Shown piece by piece: positions 5,699 to 40,692 of a stretch of DNA of 40,692 nucleotides. Under the pieces are notes generated by a model that worked only from the letters and a program-made list of their open reading frames with translations, did no database searches and had not been told where the DNA came from. Origin of the DNA: a virus. The stretch is taken from the UHGV virus genome UHGV-0390076, one strand, 5' to 3'. Made by a program: the position numbers and the translations under genes. Each line of letters starts with the position of its first letter. The first letter of the stretch is position 1.

Positions 5699-6322
5699 AT
5701 GAGAATTTTAGTAGCGTGCGAAGAAAGTCAGGCTGTAACAATGGAGCTTAGAAAGTTGGGCCATGAAGCATATAGTTGCGACATAGACCCCTGTTCTGGC
5801 GGGCATCCAGAGTGGCATTTACAGGTGGATGCCTTGGAGTTGCTAAAAATGCAGTGGGATATGATTATCGCTTTTCCGCCGTGTACATATTTAAGCAATG
5901 CAGGGGCTTGCCGCTTATATCCTAAGAAGGGACAGCTTGACCAAGAACGATATAAAAAGGGGCTGGCGGCAAAAGAATTTTTTTTACGCTTTTTGAATGC
6001 TGACTGTCCGAAGATAGCTGTGGAAAATCCAGTGTCAAGTACAGTATTCCGTATGCCTCCACATAGTCAGGAAATTCAACCTTGGCAGTTCGGACATCCT
6101 TACACAAAGAAAACGAGGTTGTGGTTACGGGGGCTTCCGCCGTTAGAGCCAACAGATATTGTAACTCCGATGGGACCATATGTGCCGGCAGGAACTGGCA
6201 GAAAAGACAGGAGCAAATACGGGGCAGCAAAACGCGGAAAGGATGCTAAAAACAGAGCAAAGACGTTTCAGGGGATAGCTCATGCAATGGCAGAGCAATG
6301 GGCTGGACAGAGCGTAAATTAA
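5699..6322 (+). CDS. C5-cytosine-methyltransferase-like catalytic-core protein (PC, ENV and K-x-T-R-x-x-x-R-G motifs present; no AdoMet motif I and no TRD seen)
   Basis: AFPPCTYLSNAG (motif IV-like), IAVENPV (motif VI-like) and KKTRLWLRG (motif VIII-like) in canonical order; only ~205 aa; ATG 5699 preferred over the TTG at 5690. Confidence 0.45.
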   Translation: MRILVACEESQAVTMELRKLGHEAYSCDIDPCSGGHPEWHLQVDALELLKMQWDMIIAFPPCTYLSNAGACRLYPKKGQLDQERYKKGLAAKEFFLRFLNADCPKIAVENPVSSTVFRMPPHSQEIQPWQFGHPYTKKTRLWLRGLPPLEPTDIVTPMGPYVPAGTGRKDRSKYGAAKRGKDAKNRAKTFQGIAHAMAEQWAGQSVN

Positions 6323-28180: not shown

Positions 28181-31100
28181 ATGTCATTTAGCAGCAGACT
28201 AAAAGAGAAGGAAAAAGAGGGCATTAAAGAAAGCCGGGATTATCGTACACGAGGCTCATATGCTGAAAAAACGGAAGGCGCATTCTCAAAACGGATTGCA
28301 CAAAAGGAAAAAGGGAACAATATACAGAAAATACCACAGCCGGAAAAAAGTATTTTTTCAGAAATATCAAAACCGGAGATATCAAAAATTAAATCCATTC
28401 AGCCAGTATCTTCATATTTGTCCGGTTCTGCATCTTCTTCTAATAATATTCCATACGCCGCAGCACATCAGGATCAGAAGATGCATCAGAACATTGAGCA
28501 GAAGACGCAGGATTCAGCTCAGAAAAAGTGGGAAAATGCAAAGAAGCAGTATGAGCTGGATAAAATAGGTTTTCAGTCTGGAAAACGTTTTATCAATTAC
28601 AGTACCATTCCGCAAAGATCAGATTATGAAACTGGAATCAAGGAAGGAATGGATAAACCGAATCTGTTCAGCAATGAGATATACGGTCTGATGGATTATC
28701 TTGATCCAGAAAAGAGAGAAGTTTCCAAAGCGAGTAAATATAACTTCACCCGCATGAATGAGGATGAAAAGAATATATACTATTATCTGAATGGAAGATT
28801 CGGGGCAGAGGCAGCTGGAAACTATATTAAGTCGATCAACAGGGAGCTGAATGAAAGAAATATAGAGGCTGTAGTGGGGAGTGCAAAAGAACTGGGGAAA
28901 GAGCATCCGGTATTTTCTTCTGTTCTGGATGCGGCTATTGCTCCGGTTACAGCGGGAGCATATCCGGCTGTGCTTGCTGGACAGGCAGCAAATACAATTA
29001 GCGGGAAATATGAACCAATGGATCCAAATGATAAGTATTTAGGGCAGGCTGCCATATTGGAAGGCTTGCGTGCTGGCGTTGCGGAAAACGAGGGGATTAA
29101 GAATGTAATCCCCAATCAAACCGCCCGTGAGTTCCTAGTAGGGACGGGAATGTCCATAGGTGAAAATATAGCCCGTCTGCCATTTGGAGCATACGGCCTT
29201 GCGGCGGCAGCCGGAAGTGCCGGCCTGTCAGGGACACGGGATGCAGCTGAAAGAGGGGGAACAACCGGACAGGCTGTAGCCTCAGGTGCAGTTAATGCGG
29301 CGGCAGAGGCGTTTTTTGAAAAATTCTCTCTGGATGGACTGGAACGGTTTAAGGTATCACCGGGCAGAGGCGTTAAGGAGTTCCTTAAAAATGTGGGGAA
29401 ACAGGCTATTACAGAAGGATCAGAAGAGACAGCAACGGAAATTGTCAATACATTATCGGATGCTGTGATTATGAAGGAACTCTCTCAGTACAATCAGGCA
29501 TACCAGGAGTATAAGAAAGCTGGTGCAGATGATGGGACTGCAAAGAGGGAGGCTTTTATGGGTCTACTGAAAAATGTAGGGCTGGCAGGTCTGGGCGGTG
29601 CCATATCCGGCGGGATTATGGGCGGAGGAAGTCAGGCTCTGGGAAATGTAGGTCTCAGCTATTATGGCAGTAAGATTGATCAGGATTACAGAGACTACGC
29701 AGATTCGATAGATACAGATCCGGCGTATTATGTCCGCCTGGAGGATGCCAGGGAAGCACAGGAATTACAAAGGACAGCTCAGGAATACGCAGAATTACAG
29801 CGCCAGGGCAGGTATGTGCCGAACCGGGATAAGGCAGAATATGATATCCGTATGAATCGGTTCATGGATAATTTACAGACCCGCTCACAGGAGCCCGTAC
29901 GCCCTCAGGATACAGTTGAAGTACCTATGGATGATAAAACTACCGTTGAGCCTGAAATAACCAGTACAGAGCCAGTAAATCGTCAGCTTGCGGAAAACCA
30001 TGTGATGTCGGAAACAGTATCAAAAGTAAACAAAAGCGTATCAAAATCACAGGAAAGTATCTCTCAATCCACACAGCCTGTACAGTCACAGACAACGGAG
30101 GATATAAAACAAAGCGGGGCTTATAAAGGCGCTTATGGAAAATATGGGAGAGAGGCGCTGTTGGATACCTATGACGGAACGGTAGAGGTATCGGTGTATA
30201 ATAAAGCCTTTGGTCGCGCCTATGATGCCGGATACCATAACATGGACCTGGACATGGCAGAACATTCCGCCATTATGTCTGTATTGACAGATAAGCAGAT
30301 CAAAGCAGCATATCGGGCAGGTATACAGGATTATAATGCTGATAATAAGGTGATTCCTCAGTATACACAGGGGGAAGCCAGAAATGGCGGTCTTGGCAGT
30401 GTGTCAGAGCTGGCAGGACAGGATCAGCGCAGAGTAGCAGACTATATAGGAAAAAAGACCGGGCTTAAAATCAATCTGATAGACAGCATGGAGGATGGAG
30501 CCACAGCATCCTATAAAAGCGGTGAGATTACCATAGATGTAGGCTCAAAAGACTTCAATGGAGCTATGTCTCATGAATTAACGCATTTCATCAAGGAACA
30601 GGTCCCAAAAGCATATGAAGCCTATCAGACCACTGTAGTAGAGGCGGAAATGAAAGCCTCCGGCAGATCATGGGAAGATTTGATAGAATCCTATGAAAGA
30701 AGATACGCAGAAGCAGGACAGGAGCTAACACGTCAGGAGGTCATTGAGGAGATTGTGGCAGATGCTACACAGAAATTTTTTAATGATCCCCAATTTATTG
30801 ATGCCGTAATTAAAAAGGATAAAAAGCTTGCCCAGCGCATTATAGATTTCCTTACAGATATAGTGGATTCAATTAAGAACTTAATCCAGACCGGAAGCAC
30901 CAGAGCAGCAGCTAAGAATCTGGAGGAAAATGCGAAGCTGTATGAAGAAGCACGTGATATTTGGATGTATGGGCTGGAAAAGGCAGGAGAAAGTTATAAG
31001 AGCGGACAGAGCAGGGAACGCTCTTCTGTGCCATCAACATCAGAAAAACAGTCAGAGGTAGAAAGTAGTGGTATAATCTTGAAGGATGTCCGCTTTCAGT

Positions 31101-34100
31101 TGGATGATATAGACGAAACTGATGAAAACAGGATAGAGGCATTAATCTATGCCAATAAATCTTTACAGGAGGCTTATGATCTTCTGGAACAGCAGTTTAA
31201 GCTTACATCAAAAGATGCGGTTCGTTTGGAAGATATTCGAAAAGTATCGAAAGAATTTCTTAAAAAATATAACAGTAAATATTCTCAGGAAATTCTGGAA
31301 AAGAATCTTTCTAAATTGTATTCTTATATCCGAGGTTCTGATCAAATAGATGGAAAAGCTGTTACGGAAGCAGCCACAAGTATTGCCAAAAGTATTCTAA
31401 AGCAATCACAGCAGATGGATACAGAACTGACAGAGCAATACCGTGATTTTCGTAAACAGATCCGTGATACTAAGATATCAATCACGGATCAGGATAAGGC
31501 AGATCTGGCGGCAGTAGGAGGATATAATAGCTTCAGAAAACAGTATTTTGGAAAAATGAAGTTGGGGAAAGACGGTATTTCTGTTGATTCTCTCTATCAG
31601 GAATTACAGTCACAGTATCCGGAATTATTCCCGGAAGATATTACTCATCCAGCAGACGAGTTAATAGCCATTGCTTCCGCTCTGGATCAGACAGAACCAC
31701 AGGTTAAAAATCCATACCATGCTGATATGGATGAAATGTCCTATATACTCGGTCAGGATATTATGCAGGCATATTTTGATGTTAGAAGTCCCAGAGCCAC
31801 ATTTGCGGATAAAAAAGAAGCCCAGCTTCAAAAAGTACGTTGGCAGTATCAGCAAAAGATGAGAGGATATAAGGATGACTTGAAAAAACAGTATCAAGAT
31901 GCTTTGGATCAAGTACGTAAAGAAAAGATAGAAGAAAGTGAGCGGTTGGCAGAGTCATATAGAAACCTGGCAGAGGCAGAACGCCAGGAGATGAAGGATT
32001 ATTATAAATCCAAAATGGAGAGGGTCAGGAATGAAAAATGGCAGGCCATAGATGCGATAACGAGGAAGCATCAAATTAAAACCAAATCAATGAGAGACCG
32101 GCAGCAGGCACAATATGATAAAAAGATTATCTTGAAGGAAATAAAGCGGTTGCAGAATTGGCTTTTGAAACCTACAGATAGCCGTCATATTCCGGAAGGG
32201 CTGCGTACTTATGTGGCAGAGTTCCTGAATAATATTGATTACTCAACGAATGATCGAACTCTCATGGTAAAAATAGGTGACGATCTGGTTGAATCAACAA
32301 TTAAGAGCCAGAGAACCAGAGCATGGGAAGAGGTTCAGGGCTTTTTTAGGGAAATATTAGACCATGGTGGTGTATATGAAGATCCTCAGACCGGAGCAAC
32401 TACTGCTGTAGAAGTAGATCCGGACATGGTAAGCAAATTAAAAGACTTGATTCAAAAAACCAAGGATATAGATAAGCTGGATGATCTTGATGCATATACG
32501 ATGAGAGAGCTGAAAGAGACTGTATATTCTATGAAAAAAATGATTATGGAAGTAAATTCTCTTAAAAGCAATCAGAAATCAAGAGAAGTCAGCCAACTGG
32601 CAGAGGGAATATTTGAGGATCTTTCGAAGCGTGGGGACAGAACAGAATATTCTGGAGCCGTTTTCGGTACAGGTGATAAAATGCTGAATTATGATATGCT
32701 GGATCCTCAGACAATGTTTGGGCTGATGGGAAACAATATGAAGTCACTGTATGATTCTCTGCGTACTGGTCTGGATAAGAAGACTTTAAAATTAAAAGAG
32801 GCCCAGGATTATATTCACGGTATATTGAAGGAGCAGGAAATAACGCCAAGACAGTTAAGGGAGTGGACTGGCCCAGATGCTAAACGAAAGGTTTTTGAGA
32901 CATCTGGAGGAACGATTGAATTAAGTGTGGCAGAGGTAATGTCATTATACGAATTAGATAAGCGGAATCAGGCGAAAGGTCATATGTATGATAAAAATGG
33001 GGGAATTAAACGCGAACCCAAGTCACAGAAGGCTGGTATAAAAGGAAAAAGACTTGAGCCAGCTAAAATAGTGAAAAATTATCGAACAGTGAAGGTAAAG
33101 CCTGCGGATGTAATTAAAATCACCAGTAGTTTAACAGAGGAACAAAAGATTTTGGCAGATGCTATGCAGCGCTTTATGGGGGATCAGTGCGCAGCCTGGG
33201 GAAATGAAGTTACAATGGATATGTACGGATACCAGAAGTTTACAGCTAGAAATTATTTTCCTATAGTAACGGACCGTGATTATATATCTACCAAACAGGG
33301 AGAGGCACAGAACCAAAAGACAACTATTAAAAACATGGGAATTACCAAGAGCACCACACCACACGCTCATAATCCGATCATTATACAAGATATCTTTGAT
33401 GTATATACGCAGCAGGTGGATAAAATGAGCACATATAATGCTTACGTGATCCCTCTGTCGGATCTTAATAAGGTGTTTAATTATCGGGATGCAAGAGATA
33501 CTGTGGGAAGAATCAGCATAAAAGAAGAAATTGATCGGGCATTTGGAAAAAAAGGAAATGCATACATTGATAGGCTGGTACAAGATATCAATGGAGGAAT
33601 TATACAGGATCAAGGGATAACAGATAATCTTGTAGCGGCTTGGAAAACATCGGCAATAGCAGGGAATTTAAGGGTGGCAATACAGCAGCCTACGGCGATA
33701 CTGAGAGCCATGTCGGAAATAAATCCAAAGTATTTGCTACGCGGAATAATAACAAATACAAGGAAGGGGCAGTGGAGGCAAATGACTAACTATGCCCCGA
33801 TTGTGCTGTGGAAGGATTGGGGATTCTACAAAATGGATACTAGCCGTCAAATGAAGGAAGTGATCTTTGATACAGATTCTCTGTTGCATCGGATTAACAA
33901 TGTAGCTATGATTCCGGCAGAAATGGGGGACAAAATTGCATGGAATAGGATATGGAGGGCCTGTGAATTTGAGTGTATGGATAAGCATAAGGAATTAAAA
34001 GAAGGAAGTGAGGAGTTTTACCAAGAGGTTGGACGGCGCTTTGGAGAAATCATTGATAGAACTCAGGTAGTTGATTCGGTATTACATCGAACACAAATTA

Positions 34101-35464
34101 TGCGTAGCCAAAATGCAGCAGTAAAGATGGCTACCAGTTTCATGGCAGAACCATTAAAAAGTTATGATATGTTATATCGTGCCTATGCAAGCGTAAAATA
34201 TAAAACTCCAGGAGCTTCAAAAGCGGCAGCAGCAGCAACAGGGGCCTATGTGATTTCCACAGTGGCTACTGCGTTGGCTGCTTCTGTGATGGATGCAATG
34301 AGGGATGATGATAGAGAAAAGGGATTTACAGAAAAGTATGTAGATAACGTAAAAGGAAATCTTATGGAAGCAGCAATGCTGATTAATAATATTCCCTATG
34401 CAAAGGATATCTGGGCTACATTGTCAGGAGATACGCCTGTACGTTCCGACATGGCAGGTATACAGGATCTTGCATATGCCATACGAGAAATCGGAAAATA
34501 TAAAAAGGGGAGCAGCAAATATACCCCTCAGTATGTAGCACTGTATGCCATGGAACATGTATCTAAAACATTTGGAACTCCCTTAGGAAATGTGATTAGG
34601 GACGTTAGATCCATAGCAGATACTATAGTACATGCGAGTGATAGAAGAGAGCAGGATTACTTGTGGATAAAAAATAAGTATAGCATGAAAAATCAAGCAA
34701 ATTTGTCATTATATACAGGGATGATGATTGAGGCCCAGAGAGCAGGAGATTTGGAGTTTCAAAGCAAGGTAAAACGCGATCTTAATAAGGCAGGAATCGA
34801 AAATGATAAAATCATATCCAGAATAAATGCATTAATTAAGGAAGAATTGGTGACAGATGAATATGTAGACCCACGCATTGATGCAGCAGCACAGGCCAGA
34901 ATTGCATTTGACACAGAAGCTTATAAGACCGCAGTGGAACAGTTAAAACAGGAGGGGTATGCAGAAAAAATGATAAGCTCTGCGGTAGGTACCAGGATAA
35001 AGGAACTCACAGGAAAAGAGGAAATTGACTGGGAGGCAGAGGCTGAGACAGCGGCAGATACCCTGTATGATGATATTCTGGGTAATGATGCAGATTTGGA
35101 AAATGATAAGGAAAAGGTTACCTATAAACCCAGTTATAGCAGCACGGATATTATACGGTCAGTGGAAGAAATAAAAGAAGGGGATATAAATTCCCTGAAA
35201 GCTTTCAACGTAGTGGCAGAGGATTATTATGAAACTAAAAAGAAGAATGGAGTGAAGAAGAAAGAAGCCATTGGAGATTTAAGATCCATTATAACCCGTA
35301 AATATAAGAAGGAATGGATATCAGCTTACAATTCCGGAAACACCGCAGCGTGTGAAGCAATCCAGAACAGATTAAAACATCTTAAGATGAACGGGAGCTA
35401 TCTGTATAGTGGGAAAGATTGGGCAGACTGGCGGAAGGAAGCTAAAGAGAAGAAAGAAGATTAG
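28181..35464 (+). CDS. giant 2427-aa protein with a Gly/Ala-rich hydrophobic region, an HEXXH zincin-like motif and long helical regions (virion-associated ejection or polyvalent protein?)
   Basis: Uninterrupted 7.3-kb ORF; HELTH at about residue 800; A/G-rich hydrophobic segments at residues ~240-500. Confidence 0.6.
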   Translation: MSFSSRLKEKEKEGIKESRDYRTRGSYAEKTEGAFSKRIAQKEKGNNIQKIPQPEKSIFSEISKPEISKIKSIQPVSSYLSGSASSSNNIPYAAAHQDQKMHQNIEQKTQDSAQKKWENAKKQYELDKIGFQSGKRFINYSTIPQRSDYETGIKEGMDKPNLFSNEIYGLMDYLDPEKREVSKASKYNFTRMNEDEKNIYYYLNGRFGAEAAGNYIKSINRELNERNIEAVVGSAKELGKEHPVFSSVLDAAIAPVTAGAYPAVLAGQAANTISGKYEPMDPNDKYLGQAAILEGLRAGVAENEGIKNVIPNQTAREFLVGTGMSIGENIARLPFGAYGLAAAAGSAGLSGTRDAAERGGTTGQAVASGAVNAAAEAFFEKFSLDGLERFKVSPGRGVKEFLKNVGKQAITEGSEETATEIVNTLSDAVIMKELSQYNQAYQEYKKAGADDGTAKREAFMGLLKNVGLAGLGGAISGGIMGGGSQALGNVGLSYYGSKIDQDYRDYADSIDTDPAYYVRLEDAREAQELQRTAQEYAELQRQGRYVPNRDKAEYDIRMNRFMDNLQTRSQEPVRPQDTVEVPMDDKTTVEPEITSTEPVNRQLAENHVMSETVSKVNKSVSKSQESISQSTQPVQSQTTEDIKQSGAYKGAYGKYGREALLDTYDGTVEVSVYNKAFGRAYDAGYHNMDLDMAEHSAIMSVLTDKQIKAAYRAGIQDYNADNKVIPQYTQGEARNGGLGSVSELAGQDQRRVADYIGKKTGLKINLIDSMEDGATASYKSGEITIDVGSKDFNGAMSHELTHFIKEQVPKAYEAYQTTVVEAEMKASGRSWEDLIESYERRYAEAGQELTRQEVIEEIVADATQKFFNDPQFIDAVIKKDKKLAQRIIDFLTDIVDSIKNLIQTGSTRAAAKNLEENAKLYEEARDIWMYGLEKAGESYKSGQSRERSSVPSTSEKQSEVESSGIILKDVRFQLDDIDETDENRIEALIYANKSLQEAYDLLEQQFKLTSKDAVRLEDIRKVSKEFLKKYNSKYSQEILEKNLSKLYSYIRGSDQIDGKAVTEAATSIAKSILKQSQQMDTELTEQYRDFRKQIRDTKISITDQDKADLAAVGGYNSFRKQYFGKMKLGKDGISVDSLYQELQSQYPELFPEDITHPADELIAIASALDQTEPQVKNPYHADMDEMSYILGQDIMQAYFDVRSPRATFADKKEAQLQKVRWQYQQKMRGYKDDLKKQYQDALDQVRKEKIEESERLAESYRNLAEAERQEMKDYYKSKMERVRNEKWQAIDAITRKHQIKTKSMRDRQQAQYDKKIILKEIKRLQNWLLKPTDSRHIPEGLRTYVAEFLNNIDYSTNDRTLMVKIGDDLVESTIKSQRTRAWEEVQGFFREILDHGGVYEDPQTGATTAVEVDPDMVSKLKDLIQKTKDIDKLDDLDAYTMRELKETVYSMKKMIMEVNSLKSNQKSREVSQLAEGIFEDLSKRGDRTEYSGAVFGTGDKMLNYDMLDPQTMFGLMGNNMKSLYDSLRTGLDKKTLKLKEAQDYIHGILKEQEITPRQLREWTGPDAKRKVFETSGGTIELSVAEVMSLYELDKRNQAKGHMYDKNGGIKREPKSQKAGIKGKRLEPAKIVKNYRTVKVKPADVIKITSSLTEEQKILADAMQRFMGDQCAAWGNEVTMDMYGYQKFTARNYFPIVTDRDYISTKQGEAQNQKTTIKNMGITKSTTPHAHNPIIIQDIFDVYTQQVDKMSTYNAYVIPLSDLNKVFNYRDARDTVGRISIKEEIDRAFGKKGNAYIDRLVQDINGGIIQDQGITDNLVAAWKTSAIAGNLRVAIQQPTAILRAMSEINPKYLLRGIITNTRKGQWRQMTNYAPIVLWKDWGFYKMDTSRQMKEVIFDTDSLLHRINNVAMIPAEMGDKIAWNRIWRACEFECMDKHKELKEGSEEFYQEVGRRFGEIIDRTQVVDSVLHRTQIMRSQNAAVKMATSFMAEPLKSYDMLYRAYASVKYKTPGASKAAAAATGAYVISTVATALAASVMDAMRDDDREKGFTEKYVDNVKGNLMEAAMLINNIPYAKDIWATLSGDTPVRSDMAGIQDLAYAIREIGKYKKGSSKYTPQYVALYAMEHVSKTFGTPLGNVIRDVRSIADTIVHASDRREQDYLWIKNKYSMKNQANLSLYTGMMIEAQRAGDLEFQSKVKRDLNKAGIENDKIISRINALIKEELVTDEYVDPRIDAAAQARIAFDTEAYKTAVEQLKQEGYAEKMISSAVGTRIKELTGKEEIDWEAEAETAADTLYDDILGNDADLENDKEKVTYKPSYSSTDIIRSVEEIKEGDINSLKAFNVVAEDYYETKKKNGVKKKEAIGDLRSIITRKYKKEWISAYNSGNTAACEAIQNRLKHLKMNGSYLYSGKDWADWRKEAKEKKED

Positions 35465-36093: not shown

Positions 36094-36166
36094 TCAAATA
36101 CGCACTTACAATAAGGCTGACCAAACCGAAAGAGGGTATGAGCCAAGGGCAAAGCCCCGGAGAGCC

Positions 36167-37684
36167 TTATTTTACAAGGTTTTCCGGGGCTTTCATCATG
36201 TAATAATACACATCAATATGGTTCTGTTCTTTATCATATATAATTTTGTCAATGATACTTTTAAGGGCTGAGTTCTTTTCCGAAACGCTGAATTTATCAG
36301 AATGCAGGATATCCAGCACATTAGATATCCGGTCTAACATCACTGTATCGTCATATCCTTTTTGCGGTAAGTCCTCCAGCTGTGAGATACGTTCGGTCAG
36401 CTCTTCACGTTCCCTGTTCAGCAGTTCTTTATTTTTTCGATAATCCTCTTTTGTGTCAATTCCTTCCATATAGGCTTCTCTGGCCCGCAGTTCTTTCTGA
36501 TCCACCCGTTCCAGACGGCGTTTCAAAGATTGAATTTCATCCTGTGATTGATCCTGTATTGAATCCGTCTGTTTCAGGTCATACTTGACAGTACCGCAGG
36601 CCAGAGCTTCTTCCAGAGCATTCAAAACAGCAGGCACAAGGGATTCTGCACGAACATAACAGTTATGATAACATTTTCCTTTCAGGTATCCGCCGCACTG
36701 AAAAGAAAATGTATCTGGAAGGCTTTTTCGGTGCATCACGCAGGATGAAAGGGAACGGCCACAGGAAGGACACTTTACCAGTCCGGCCAGCCAATGTTTG
36801 GTGACTTCACTGGGTTTTGCATTTCTGGGTTTATATTCGCTCTTCCAACGGGCCTGAGCTTTTTCATACAGTTCCTTGCTTATAATAGCCGGATGGTGGC
36901 CGGAACGCACGATCCATTCAGATGGATCGCGGATTTCCTTTGTTGTATTGTTGCACCGGTTCCATCGAATATCCCCGGCATAGGCGGGGTTTTGCAGGAT
37001 ATACTCCAGACTGCGCTTTTCAAAAAGTTTTCCATGACTGGTTTTAAATCCGTGGCTGTTAAGATATTTGGTTAAGGCAAAAATACTCATCCCATTGACA
37101 TATTTTTCAAAGATAAGCCGTACAATTTCAGCCTCCTCCGGTACAATTTCCGGGGTAGCTTTATGATATGGGATACGATATCCCAGCGGAGGCCTGCACT
37201 GATATGAACCGCGCAGGGCATTTTCGGTCATTCCGCGGGTAACATCTCCAGAAAGCCGAATGGAATAAAATTCATCCATCCATTCAATGATTCTTTCAAT
37301 CAGACCGCCGAATGGACCTTCAATCAGAGGCTCAGAGATACTGACAACATCCACATGGCATTTATTCCGGAGCATGGATTTATAGACGATACTTTCCTCC
37401 TGATTGCGGGCAAAACGAGAAAATTTCCATACCAAAATTACATCAAAGGGATGGGAACTTAGTTTTGCAGCAGAGATCATCTGCTGGAATTTGGGACGTT
37501 TGTCTGCGCGCCGACCGGATATTCCATTTTCCATGTAGATGTGTTCCGGAGGAACAACCATATTGTGATTCCTGGCATATTCTAATAGCAGCCGCTTTTG
37601 AGAATCCGGGGAAAGTTCTTCCTGCTTGTCCGTGGATACCCGGATGTAGAGGGCAGCAGTTTTCAAAACATTTTCATGCATCAT
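36167..37684 (-). CDS. large serine recombinase (integrase)
   Basis: N-terminal resolvase catalytic motif YIRVSTDKQ; recombinase and zinc-ribbon/coiled-coil C-terminal regions; 505 aa. Confidence 0.9.
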   Translation of the reverse strand: MMHENVLKTAALYIRVSTDKQEELSPDSQKRLLLEYARNHNMVVPPEHIYMENGISGRRADKRPKFQQMISAAKLSSHPFDVILVWKFSRFARNQEESIVYKSMLRNKCHVDVVSISEPLIEGPFGGLIERIIEWMDEFYSIRLSGDVTRGMTENALRGSYQCRPPLGYRIPYHKATPEIVPEEAEIVRLIFEKYVNGMSIFALTKYLNSHGFKTSHGKLFEKRSLEYILQNPAYAGDIRWNRCNNTTKEIRDPSEWIVRSGHHPAIISKELYEKAQARWKSEYKPRNAKPSEVTKHWLAGLVKCPSCGRSLSSCVMHRKSLPDTFSFQCGGYLKGKCYHNCYVRAESLVPAVLNALEEALACGTVKYDLKQTDSIQDQSQDEIQSLKRRLERVDQKELRAREAYMEGIDTKEDYRKNKELLNREREELTERISQLEDLPQKGYDDTVMLDRISNVLDILHSDKFSVSEKNSALKSIIDKIIYDKEQNHIDVYYYMMKAPENLVK

Positions 37685-37734
37685 ATCATCTCCTGTGTCA
37701 ATCTATATGATTTTTAGGTACAAAAAATACGCCC

Positions 37735-37763
37735 CTTGCCAGAACGTACCGAAAATGATATAA
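37735..37763 (+). promoter_or_regulatory. sigma-70-type promoter (TTGCCA, 17-nt spacer, TATAAT) reading rightward between int and hicB
   Basis: -35 at 37735-37740 and -10 at 37758-37763, read directly. Confidence 0.55.
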
Positions 37764-37768
37764 TGCAG

Positions 37769-37927
37769 GTGATTTGATTGATTGTATCTTTCCGGTATAT
37801 TCTGGTAAGAGATAATCTGAGTGAGGCCGTTCGGTGCTGGTAACACCGGGCGGCTCTTGCATTTTATGGCTGAATATGCTATTGAAACCGACCGTCACTA
37901 TTGGGAGTAGTGGCGGCTATTTTTTTG
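37769..37927 (+). ncRNA. candidate ~160-nt small RNA, cis-antisense to the int leader
   Basis: Promoter above; internal 11-bp hairpin at 37826-37854; terminator stem ccgtcacta/tagtggcgg followed by TTTTTT (37892-37926); no credible ORF. Confidence 0.4.
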
Positions 37928-37932
37928 ATTCA

Positions 37933-38346
37933 TCAACGCATCTGAACCTTTTCCATTAAAGCCTCCTGAAGCACCTGGGAGAAATTTAAGCCCATCTCCA
38001 TAGCAGCCTCATTCAACCACTCAGGAATACTGAGAGTTTTTTTGACAGCGCGGGCATTTGTACGTTTCTTATATGCCAGCATATCAAATTCGATAACTAC
38101 AAGAAATGAGTCTGCTTCCAGAGAAATGGCAGAGGGATCAGAAGCAGGAGGGATGGGCTGTTTCTCCTCTTCACGGCTGGTAATGGCAAGCCCCAGTGCT
38201 TCGATTGCCATTTCATAGGCCTCTGTCATATCCTCGCCTTGTGTAAGGCATTCAGGGATATCTGGAAATGAGATCCAGAAGCCGCCTTCTTCAGCTTTGT
38301 GGAATACTGCTGGATAAAATAACTTATTCATATTTGGCACCTCCAT
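37933..38346 (-). CDS. hicB: HicB-family antitoxin
   Basis: N-terminus YPAVFHKAEEGGFWISFPDIPECLTQGEDMTEAYEMAIEAL typical of HicB; C-terminal RHH-like region. Confidence 0.85.
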   Translation of the reverse strand: MEVPNMNKLFYPAVFHKAEEGGFWISFPDIPECLTQGEDMTEAYEMAIEALGLAITSREEEKQPIPPASDPSAISLEADSFLVVIEFDMLAYKKRTNARAVKKTLSIPEWLNEAAMEMGLNFSQVLQEALMEKVQMR

Positions 38347-38362: not shown

Positions 38363-38551
38363 TTATTTCAGCCCCGCCTGTTTTAATATAGCCTGCTCAA
38401 GTCCTTTTTTCAGGTCTTTGCAGTGATAAGGAACTTCGGTTTGGCGTCCAGTTATGTCGTTTCTGAGTTTTATATGCGAACCGTTCTGACTGACTTCCCG
38501 AAAACCATTTTTTTTGAGATGCTTTATCATCTCGCGTGGTGTCATTGGCAT
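38363..38551 (-). CDS. hicA: HicA-family mRNA-interferase toxin
   Basis: KKNGF...NGSHIKL...ILKQAGL signature; 62 aa. Confidence 0.9.
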   Translation of the reverse strand: MPMTPREMIKHLKKNGFREVSQNGSHIKLRNDITGRQTEVPYHCKDLKKGLEQAILKQAGLK

Positions 38552-38587
38552 CCTATGTAACTCCTTTCCTTATCATGTCTATATTGT

Positions 38588-38636
38588 AACACGTAATAAT
38601 ACGTATGTCAATATAAAATATGTATTATTACGTGTT
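38588..38636. promoter_or_regulatory. 15-bp perfect inverted repeat (aacacgtaataatac / gtattattacgtgtt); putative hicAB operator
   Basis: Palindrome read directly; lies ~40 nt upstream of the hicA start. Confidence 0.5.
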
Positions 38637-38902
38637 CTTGTTACCTGCACAAATATGGAAAATAATACCAGATAATTTCCAATAATTACATATTATAATC
38701 ATACTGCACCCAATCTTCCGAAAGAAAGGTCGTGGTGAAGTGACAAAGAAGTACATACATTACAAAGGGAAAAATATATATGCAGTATATTACCGCAGTC
38801 ATAATATTATCTACTATAATTTAGACTTCTCAGGAACGACACAATTTATATTGCTGTTCTAAAACTCAACACAGTTTCCTTATGGCTATTGGGTGCCATG
38901 GA

Positions 38903-39427
38903 TCAGATTGCCTTGTGATTTTCACGGGTACAAGCCTGATCCATGCTTTCAGGGGTACGGGGGCACTCTTCAAATTCTTCTCTGAGCATCGTTGCAGAAT
39001 TTCTTTCCATCTTTTCAGATTCATGCTGCTGTTTTTTCTGGTTGTTAAGAATATTATCAGCTAACTCATTTAAGGCCTGCTGAGAAGTTGGGCTAAGCTG
39101 CTGGTATCCTTTGATTACTTCCAGAATGATATCATAGAATTTATTTTTATCAGGTTCAAGTAGTGAAGAAACTAAAGTTTTTACTTGATTTTCTTCAGAA
39201 TCTTTTAAGAACATATCTCCGGTTCCTTTAAGTAACCAGCTTTCATTTACCGTTTTACCATTCCAGTTTTCTAAGCAAATCAATTTGATAGTTCGATCAG
39301 AAAGGTTTTTTCGTCCGTTTTCAATATCAGATATGTGCCCTTGTGTGGTTGATATTTTTTTTGCAAAGTCTCCCTGCTTTATGTTTAAAGCTTTACGAAG
39401 GAATTTGAGTCTTTCTCCTTCGGTCAT
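38903..39427 (-). CDS. XRE-family HTH transcriptional regulator (cI-like repressor)
   Basis: N-terminal HTH LKFLRKALNIKQGDFAKKISTTQGHISDIENGRK; divergent from the cro-like gene. Confidence 0.8.
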   Translation of the reverse strand: MTEGERLKFLRKALNIKQGDFAKKISTTQGHISDIENGRKNLSDRTIKLICLENWNGKTVNESWLLKGTGDMFLKDSEENQVKTLVSSLLEPDKNKFYDIILEVIKGYQQLSPTSQQALNELADNILNNQKKQQHESEKMERNSATMLREEFEECPRTPESMDQACTRENHKAI

Positions 39428-39571: not shown

Positions 39572-39796
39572 ATGAAAGAACTGCAGGAATCAATATTTCC
39601 AAATTTAGATAAAATTCTGGATCAGAAACATATATCTCAAAAGGAGCTGAATATCCGATTGGGAATTTCTGAAAAATCCCTCTGGAATAAAAAACGTGGG
39701 AGGACAGAGTTTACCTTAGAAGAGGTAGAAAAGATTTGTGAAATGATTCCGGAGTACCGGTTAGAGTACATTTTTAAAAGAGTATCGAATCAATAA
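39572..39796 (+). CDS. Cro-like small HTH regulator
   Basis: HTH ISQKELNIRLGISEKSLWN; AGGAGGTG RBS; divergent from the repressor. Confidence 0.65.
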   Translation: MKELQESIFPNLDKILDQKHISQKELNIRLGISEKSLWNKKRGRTEFTLEEVEKICEMIPEYRLEYIFKRVSNQ

Positions 39797-40235
39797 GCTG
39801 TCAGGAGCGCTATTCCTGCCAGCTAATTGCCAAATTTGTTTACCCTATAATCCTTGCAGGCTTTCGCCGCAATGGATAGCGCCCAGTGCTTCTTTAGGAG
39901 TTGTGTCACTTTAGCAGTATGGTTCTGCAGATTGCCTGATAGCTGACACAATACGAAATGGCATGATCCCGGTGAAGCATTTTAAAGGTGAGTGCCGTCT
40001 CACAATTTTTTTACATAGTCTCATATCTATGGATTGTACGCCGGATCAGTAGCCAATCTTTAATACGCCAATGTTTAACGTGTATGGGTCCACGAGACAA
40101 ATCCGTATTAAGGGAGCAGGCAAAGACAAAAGTTTGGTCAAAGTAACCACTCCTTCCTTGCCATAAAATAGGCAGGAACAGTATAGCATAATCGGTAAAA
40201 TATTACAACATTTAAAACTGGAGGTGAAACAGACT

Positions 40236-40629: not shown

Positions 40630-40692
40630 ATTATTACCCTCCCTTCATGCTGTACTCGGCCCTGGCGGGGGCCTGTAAATCCAGTATAGAAC
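40627..40692 (+). repeat. structured repeat, copy 2 (cut off by the window end)
   Basis: ~89% identical to 1268-1333; all six substitutions are transitions that preserve the helices. Confidence 0.6.

Follow-up and report, generated by a model that had tools for sequence, protein, structure and literature searches.

In the phage-like genome UHGV-0390076, the integrase gene int (36167-37684, minus strand), which encodes a large serine recombinase with the Pfam domains Resolvase, Recombinase and Zn_ribbon_recom, is separated from the gene hicB by a gap of 248 bp, reaching from the hicB stop (37933) to the int start (37684). Both genes are on the minus strand, and the question raised by this locus is what a promoter and terminators facing the other way do in such a gap. 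The window, by which we mean the whole stretch of DNA analysed (40,692 nucleotides, ~40.7 kb), had previously been given a sequence-only reading, which proposed that the gap holds the gene of a small RNA, cis-antisense to the integrase leader. The three features that it described are all present, at most 1-2 nt away from the coordinates given, and gene coordinates and Pfam assignments agree with the position that it gave, between the 3' region of hicB and the 5' region of int. Here we report that the unit belongs to a conserved cassette and that, by sequence criteria, its small-RNA transcription unit is genuine. We further propose, at about even chances, that the cassette would control int by means of a countertranscript and a terminator/antiterminator leader.

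Relatives of the element were collected in two ways. A search with the Int protein retrieved 73 viral contigs and 79 loci in bacterial genomes, and in these relatives BLAST, nhmmer and a covariance model located the element immediately 5' of int and encoded on the other strand. It was kept where the Int proteins were ~50% identical, and weakly at ~40%. The promoter and hairpins 1 and 2 are preserved upstream of the ~50%-identical integrases with compensatory changes, which places the unit beyond chance. In addition, a DNA pattern was drawn from the conserved part, int not being involved (AAAAAATACRCC-N15-30-TGATATAAT). It matched at least 120 viral contigs, and 109 distinct, complete elements from these matches form the set to which the counts below refer. 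The conserved part comprises GGTAYAAAAAATAC, the promoter, hairpin 1, hairpin 2 and a T-run. The promoter and a terminator specific for the plus strand were conserved in every family member examined, in support of the small-RNA unit that had been proposed. The hosts of the cassette are gut Clostridia prophages, with Lachnospiraceae and Oscillospiraceae genomes among the bacterial ones, and a cultured lysogen carrying it is Clostridium sp. AM22-11AC (NZ_QUCM01000001.1; locus L079, element at 5801-5951).

A divergent open reading frame (ORF) starts 10-70 nt from the A-tract that precedes the small-RNA promoter. In 38 of the 109 elements this ORF resembles the serine recombinase of the window. 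The remaining full-length divergent ORFs have ~340-460 amino acids (aa), except for one of 166 aa, and contig ends truncate several others; six of the ORFs outside the serine group were tested, and each contains the tyrosine-recombinase domain PF00589. The cassette is tied to integrase genes of these two unrelated families, serine and tyrosine.

The gene on the far side varies by locus, being hicB here and unrelated ORFs elsewhere. A link with hicAB was rejected on this ground and because many members stand beside tyrosine integrases. The regulatory role that had been suggested for the unit therefore divides: the part concerning the toxin-antitoxin genes falls, since the upstream gene varies, and the part concerning a cis-antisense regulator of the integrase remains plausible, since the cassette travels with int and a terminator on the int strand is conserved. 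In 97 of 103 elements the far-side ORF lies on the int strand, converging with the small RNA. Its stop is at a median of 13 nt from hairpin 2. As this nearest ORF beyond hairpin 2 is on the opposite strand, the unit was rejected as a 5' leader or riboswitch of a plus-strand gene; a longer mRNA leading into a downstream gene, the outcome that the sequence-only reading had named as speaking against its proposal, is not expected from this orientation. At one locus (L084, 3570-3703, minus strand) a second, weak copy of the cassette (29.6 bits) was noticed 2.3 kb upstream of the main copy. It adjoins no integrase and follows a 75-aa zinc-ribbon ORF, and may be a remnant from the insertion of cargo genes.

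The promoter of the small RNA, here called P2, faces away from int on the plus strand. It consists of a -35 box TTGCCA (37736-37741), a 17-nt spacer and a -10 box TATAAT (37759-37764), matches 11 of 12 consensus positions and has an extended -10 TG at 37756-37757. The near-consensus promoter described earlier is thus real, although its coordinates had been given one base too low. Upstream lies a GGTAC-A6-TAC block (37716-37730, plus strand; family consensus GGGTATAAAAAATAC), the A-tract of which is UP-element-like on the plus strand, at ~-49 to -44 of P2. On the minus strand, the same block is the U-tract of a terminator preceding int. When the 109 elements are aligned on the -10 box, the -35 box matches at least four of six positions in 94 of them, at a spacing of 16-18 nt. 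The block is near-invariant in the logo of the 109 elements. Its A-tract, as well as TG/TATAAT (TGATATAAT), had been fixed by the search pattern; the loci retrieved via Int homology demonstrate the conservation of both independently, TG and TATAAT being invariant in them. To judge from these elements P2 is strong, and probably constitutive.

Because a TG is conserved 6-7 nt after the -10 box, the start of the small RNA was placed at G37771, the seventh nucleotide after this box; a G is found at this position in 87 of the 109 elements. The predicted RNA (37771-37867, plus strand) runs to the U-rich tail after hairpin 2 and measures ~97 nt, or ~156 nt in a longer form if it ended at 37926. Across the family its predicted length is 65-95 nt, with a mode of ~85. 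The RNA body folds better as plus strand in 101 elements, versus 6 for the other strand. In the window the plus strand from 37770 to 37930 folds at -57.5 kcal/mol (z = -4.97), and none of 200 shuffled sequences folds as well. Hairpin 1 (37780-37817, plus strand) is recognised by its fold and by compensatory changes. The linker between hairpins 1 and 2 (AAAUCUAUGUAAAG in most members) is conserved and single-stranded.

The stretch of ~160 nt does lack a credible ORF, as had been stated. Its plus-strand ORFs have only 29 and 41 aa, both with GTG starts, and a small protein was rejected as the product, because these ORFs are not conserved and the alignments with relatives contain indels which are not multiples of three. 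A start-stop "AUGUAA" following the AAGAG motif occurs in many members and is absent from the window and from several subfamilies.

Hairpin 2 (37821-37860, plus strand) is the conserved intrinsic terminator of the small RNA. Its core, 37825-37855, has 12 pairs including three G-U pairs, and a U-rich tail follows at 37861-37867. The sequence-only reading had seen this hairpin, as 11 bp with two G-U pairs at 37826-37854, a slight underestimate, and had not taken it for a terminator. A strong hairpin followed by a T-run lies 75-100 nt past the -10 box in all 109 elements. Its minimum free energy (MFE) is -18.1 kcal/mol on the plus strand versus -10.1 kcal/mol on the minus strand, the plus strand being better in 109 of 109, and 343 of its 1512 pairs are wobble pairs. 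Compensatory changes affect 10 of 14 pairs in a MAFFT alignment, which was not fitted to the structure, and 14 of 16 in a covariance-model alignment of 63 sequences.

The canonical terminator noted earlier at 37892-37926 is also present, with a stem-loop at 37892-37916 and a T7 run at 37920-37926 (plus strand), 7 nt from the hicB stop. It recurs solely in L002 and, past an insertion of ~250 nt, in L004 and L005. We regard it as a local back-stop between convergent units, outside the conserved cassette. The conserved RNA does not end at 37926, as had been assumed; it ends at hairpin 2, the terminator of the family. A G+C-rich stem-loop followed by a U-run is seen in hairpin 2, in the terminator at 37892-37926 and in the terminator on the int strand, and a terminator scan of the window listed all three.

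Two further observations concern hairpin 2 and the sequence beyond it. The loop occurs both ways round, as CTGGTAA versus TTACCAG, and also as TTGGTAG (window 37837-37843 versus L009 and L159), and it appears to have been flipped inside a conserved stem; depending on the orientation, a YUNR-like loop falls on the small RNA or on the leader complementary to it. At five loci (L105, L227, L238, L256 and L258) a TTGACA...TATAAT block followed by ATACTTAACAAGACAGCCGGGAG lies on the plus strand 10-60 nt beyond hairpin 2. This second promoter-like block, directly after the small-RNA terminator, is found at tyrosine- and serine-integrase loci alike, and its sequence suggests another conserved transcript.

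The sequence-only reading had missed what is likely the core of the mechanism, namely a terminator on the int strand and a longer hairpin competing with it. A terminator scan identified the former, here called T-, as an intrinsic terminator on the minus strand, with a stem-loop running from 37749 to 37727 (GUACGUUCU-GGCAA-GGGGCGUAU) and a U-run (U5-6) to 37722. Its loop is the -35 box of P2 and its U-tract is the A-tract of P2. A hairpin of at least 5 bp using the arm beside the U-run can be formed in 107 of the 109 elements. The MFE of T- is -9.2 kcal/mol on the minus strand versus -4.8 kcal/mol on the plus strand, the minus strand being better in 103 of 109, and 191 of its 781 pairs (24%) are wobbles, which on the plus strand correspond to A-C mismatches. 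RNAalifold, run on the minus strand, picks T-. Since this minus-strand RNA signal stands before int, minus-strand transcripts are expected to cross the whole small-RNA gene, and the small RNA would hence be cis-antisense to them.

In the window, T- is 35 nt from the ATG of int (37684-37682), which is preceded by a GGAG ribosome-binding site (37693-37690, minus strand). No int promoter fits into these 35 nt, and no conserved minus-strand promoter was found inside the element. For these two reasons int appears to depend on read-through of T-.

The competing structure is a long hairpin (LH; 37735-37809, both strands), an imperfect hairpin or palindrome of ~75 nt with its apex at ~37767-37780. It spans from just past TACRCC up to the AAGAG beyond hairpin 1. 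Its left arm is made of the -35 box, the spacer and the -10 box of P2, and most of its right arm is hairpin 1. Arms from the same element pair at -24.9 kcal/mol, versus -17.8 kcal/mol for arms combined from different elements. In the 63-sequence alignment, double-sided changes were found in 18 of 18 pairs of the three variable helices of LH and in 33 of 42 pairs of the whole structure, the covariation score of which is 0.456, where shuffles score 0.176 and slid partners no more than 0.105. RNAalifold recovered only the base of hairpin 2 from our first MAFFT alignment, because indels scramble hairpin 1, and for this reason anchor-based, alignment-free tests and a covariance-model alignment were needed.

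LH and T- exclude each other. On the minus strand LH is the minimum-energy fold; in 94 of 106 elements it pairs at least 4 nt of the 5' arm of T-, and just 5 of the 106 have a complete T- in their minus-strand MFE structure. The two states are close in energy, at -21.8 kcal/mol with the 3' arm of T- blocked versus -21.1 kcal/mol with T- forced. The predicted start of the small RNA lies inside the apical loop of LH in 80 of the 109 elements and 1 nt 5' of this loop in 19 more. Starting at the apex, the small RNA is complementary to the 5' arm of LH in the leader as well as to all of the sequence before this arm; the 3' arm lies outside the stretch that it matches.

From the promoter, the terminators of the two strands, the structures that covary and exclude each other, the geometry at the apex and the linkage to integrases, all of which are read in the sequence, the following control can be proposed. 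P2 would fire from G37771 away from int and give a stable RNA of ~85-100 nt, with two stem-loops, ending at hairpin 2. Transcripts of the int strand would come from the upstream gene, here hicAB, and cross the small-RNA gene in antisense before reaching int. In this leader LH (37809 to 37735) would form first and tie up the 5' arm and the loop of T-, allowing read-through into int. When the small RNA is present it would pair with the leader, being perfectly complementary to the 5' arm of LH and to all that lies upstream of LH; the freed 3' arm would then allow T- to form, and transcription would stop before int. Convergent transcription from P2 would probably add interference. We infer that both RNAs are made, that T- terminates, that LH acts in the minus-strand RNA and that it is the small RNA which sets off termination. 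Since the cassette travels with the integrase gene, a cis-antisense role in regulating the integrase is the simplest reading, and the predicted start within the apical loop of LH makes the antisense RNA cover exactly the 5' arm of the antiterminator, as this mechanism requires.

A broader reading is more tentative, and we would put it somewhat below even chances. The cassette may be an integrase-agnostic RNA "entry timer", spread among gut Clostridia prophages, in which an antisense RNA starting at the apex flips the leader, with Int produced only briefly after entry and silenced in lysogens and against superinfecting relatives. A component of this reading, to be taken with the same reserve, is that one stretch of ~90 bp could be read three ways, as antisense promoter, as 3' arm of an antiterminator and as terminator. 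It is speculation that Int is made on entry into a cell devoid of the small RNA and that established lysogens hold it at a low level.

Several observations weigh against this control of int by a countertranscript. The 63-sequence alignment behind the covariation figures had been fitted to the structure; an alignment from MAFFT alone shows the same trend. LH has no strand-specific excess of wobbles (133 on the plus strand, 111 on the minus strand and 150 other mismatches in 1566 cells) and folds slightly better on the plus strand. Because this strand bias is missing, the use of LH on the minus-strand RNA is something that we infer, and a role at the DNA level or on both strands is possible; the palindrome is conserved in a strand-symmetric way, a possible sign that both strands, or the DNA itself, make use of it as well. 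A longer plus-strand RNA containing the whole of LH would explain the slight plus-strand bias, and for the TATAAA within the A-tract block, considered as an upstream plus-strand promoter, no conserved -35 box was found in the 109 elements. In the window the U-tract of hairpin 2 is degraded and interrupted (CUCUUGCAUUUUAU). No promoter feeding the leader is conserved inside the element or beyond hairpin 2, and as nothing is conserved past hairpin 2 the leader would have to be read-through from variable upstream genes, in the path of which hairpin 2 may itself be a weak minus-strand terminator. Finally, the window has a promoter-like site on the minus strand (TTACCA-16-TACAAT, 37808-37781), a transcript from which would be without the 5' arm of the antiterminator. 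This mirror image of P2 was rejected as the int promoter, because it is promoter-like in just 16 of the 109 elements, with spacers of 12-20 nt.

Other explanations of the same locus have to be weighed. The small RNA could be an independent trans-acting prophage product (a "moron"), with T- as a constitutive insulator and int expressed otherwise. The ends of prophages are common sites of accessory genes, the small-RNA gene is complete from promoter to terminator, and the conserved single-stranded linker is what one would expect of a seed region. This explanation would leave unaccounted for that ~75 nt of promoter and transcribed region covary as one hairpin, that LH overlaps T-, that the small RNA starts at the apex of LH, and that the cassette keeps a fixed distance of 20-70 nt to the int start codon across serine and tyrosine integrases, and we consider it fairly unlikely. 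Transcriptional interference alone, P2 colliding with or occluding int-bound polymerases and the RNA structures being incidental, is in our estimation unlikely. The units converge over ~100 bp, P2 is very strong by consensus (UP-like tract, -35 box, TG and a perfect -10 box), and the antisense transcript would be stopped by its terminator before the upstream gene, all of which suits this view; yet it has no need for the covariation of LH or for the alternative fold of T-, and hairpin 1 with the RNA body is selected on the plus strand, as the count of 101 elements against 6 indicates.

The ~75-bp palindrome might instead act as DNA, either as a symmetric site for a protein (repressor, excisionase or Int) or as an extruded structure controlling P2 or a cryptic mirror promoter of int. 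The arms of LH keep Watson-Crick pairing without a strand-specific wobble excess, unlike T- and hairpin 2, and the mirror arm of the window is promoter-like, as described above. However, arms of 30-40 bp that are bulged and free to vary in sequence while remaining complementary are atypical for operators, the scarcity and irregular spacing of promoter-like mirror arms in the family argue against a mirror promoter, and the service of one cassette to unrelated integrase families makes a shared DNA-binding protein not obvious; this explanation seems to us decidedly unlikely. To the idea that the unit is the attP of the serine integrase, with the inverted repeats as half-sites, we give next to no credence. 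In its favour, large serine integrases have as attP an imperfect inverted repeat beside int, and the LH palindrome co-varies with the locus. Against this, integrated prophages of bacterial genomes carry the region joined without interruption to int and the lysogeny genes, tyrosine integrases too are preceded by this cassette, and homology among relatives breaks on the other side of int, ~50 bp past its stop (window ~36115-36122). Beyond the break L003, L009, L076 and L077 share one flank, presumably host DNA, and the window and L005 share another. The position of the break places the attachment site downstream of int.

Countertranscript attenuation, the mechanism that we favour, is established for the rep genes of Firmicutes plasmids, namely pT181 (RNAI/RNAII-repC), pIP501 (RNAIII-repR) and pAMbeta1. 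At the sequence level the cassette resembles pT181 and pIP501 in that a short antisense RNA with secondary structure is encoded opposite to the regulated gene, between a promoter and an intrinsic terminator of its own. T- corresponds to the intrinsic terminator that these plasmids have in the sense leader just before the ribosome-binding site, and LH to their mutually exclusive antiterminator, the 5' arm of which is covered by the antisense RNA and the 3' arm not (exclusion in 94 of 106 elements; small-RNA start within or beside the loop in 99 of 109). In the plasmids the antisense RNA is made constitutively and can pair with leader sequence ahead of the ribosome-binding site, traits that the small RNA would share. 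The differences are considerable: the regulated gene here would be that of a phage integrase, where the plasmids have a replication initiator, the terminator and antiterminator sequences contain the antisense promoter (its -35 box being the loop, its A-tract the U-tract, and its spacer and -10 box the 3' arm of the antiterminator), the small RNA starts at the apex of a hairpin, and the leader promoter lies outside the conserved unit. No relationship by sequence or Rfam family is known, and the cassette would be at most a functional analogue of these systems, not a member.

With RNA-OUT of IS10/Tn10 the cassette shares a strong outward promoter near the 5' end of a recombinase gene and a stable stem-loop antisense RNA, by which the amount of recombinase made by an established element would be kept down. 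Translation of the transposase mRNA (RNA-IN) is blocked by RNA-OUT, which covers its ribosome-binding site and start codon, whereas the small RNA here starts ~78 nt upstream of the int ribosome-binding site and is accompanied by a terminator/antiterminator pair. Pairing of the small RNA with the int translation start was rejected, cognate pairs giving -14.9 kcal/mol versus -14.8 kcal/mol for non-cognate ones (median rank 37 of 90). As it neither overlaps nor complements the ribosome-binding site, any control should act via termination, processing or interference, not via a translation block.

The sib/tI region of lambda is similar in that an RNA structure controls the integrase, a terminator hairpin lies within a longer alternative hairpin, and the outcome is set by which transcript carries the structure. 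It differs in that sib is downstream of int and works through RNase III and 3' decay with no antisense RNA, the cassette being upstream of int. Lacto-int and int-alpA are integrase-associated RNA motifs known from comparative genomics; like FuFi-1, they are conserved non-coding prophage structures near integrase or lysogeny genes, with no known function. FuFi-1 is a separate RNA, of which the same window contains a full-length copy (39792-39950, minus strand; Rfam RF02986, 131.9 bits, E = 8.6e-29). This copy lies in the early region of the phage, flanked by a cro-like gene and by the small ORFs that come next.

No Rfam 15 model fits the cassette. At gathering thresholds cmscan found nothing on the element in the window or at ten other loci, and with E-values up to 10 the best hit in 37500-38100 was STnc240, at 21 bits (E = 1.6; gathering score 55). 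A search for tRNA and tmRNA found none, and BLAST against GenBank phages with the window region and two other family members gave no match. A description of the cassette was not found in full-text literature searches, nor in PMC5737381, and the cassette is apparently undescribed.

To our knowledge, the way in which temperate phages of Gram-positive gut bacteria time and limit their integrase is largely unknown, and the logic of lambda cII/PI and sib is not transferable to them. If the proposed control is true, it would be a general and modular answer to integrase timing, standing ahead of serine and tyrosine integrases alike, and the first extension known to us of plasmid-style countertranscript attenuation to phage integration. 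The cassette could serve as a marker of int-proximal prophage ends in gut metagenomes and as a handle for manipulating lysogeny in gut commensals. It could also provide recombinase tools with a repression module that is small and portable, given the wide use of large serine integrases in genome engineering.

On the other side of int, the probable attP or crossover region is at window ~36095-36193. Conservation extends up to ...TTTGGTCA at ~36118-36122, past which free relatives have other flanks than integrated ones. The stop of int is spanned by an 18-nt inverted repeat (36151-36168 / 36176-36193), which is probably the terminator of this gene.

Upstream of the gap, the minus strand carries hicB (37933-38346) and hicA (38363-38551), identified as HicB and HicA by Pfam, and a gene for a cI-like helix-turn-helix repressor (38903-39427), all within the lysogeny module, which is on this strand. 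A strong hicA promoter was predicted in 38583-38640 (minus strand), with -35 and -10 boxes at 38611-38583 (TTGACA-17-TACAAT with TG). It sits inside a near-perfect palindrome, ACACGTAATAATACGTAT ... ATATGTATTATTACGTGT, which, judged by eye, is probably a HicB operator. By its position, this predicted promoter could be the source of the minus-strand read-through reaching the int leader.

Elsewhere in the window, a repeat of ~60 nt (CCCTCCCTTCATRCTGTACTCGGCC..GGCCTGTAAATYCAGTATAGRAC) is found at 1276-1333 and at 40636-40692, where it is cut by the window end, and also in L009 at ~848-887. The copies are 87% identical and have an internal hairpin, and the end of the repeat is the complement of a GGGAGGG ribosome-binding site; it looks like the shared 5' region of two small minus-strand ORFs. 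A single ORF of 2427 aa (28181-35464, plus strand) lies directly before the attP/int region, and its product is presumably a giant tail or host-recognition protein.

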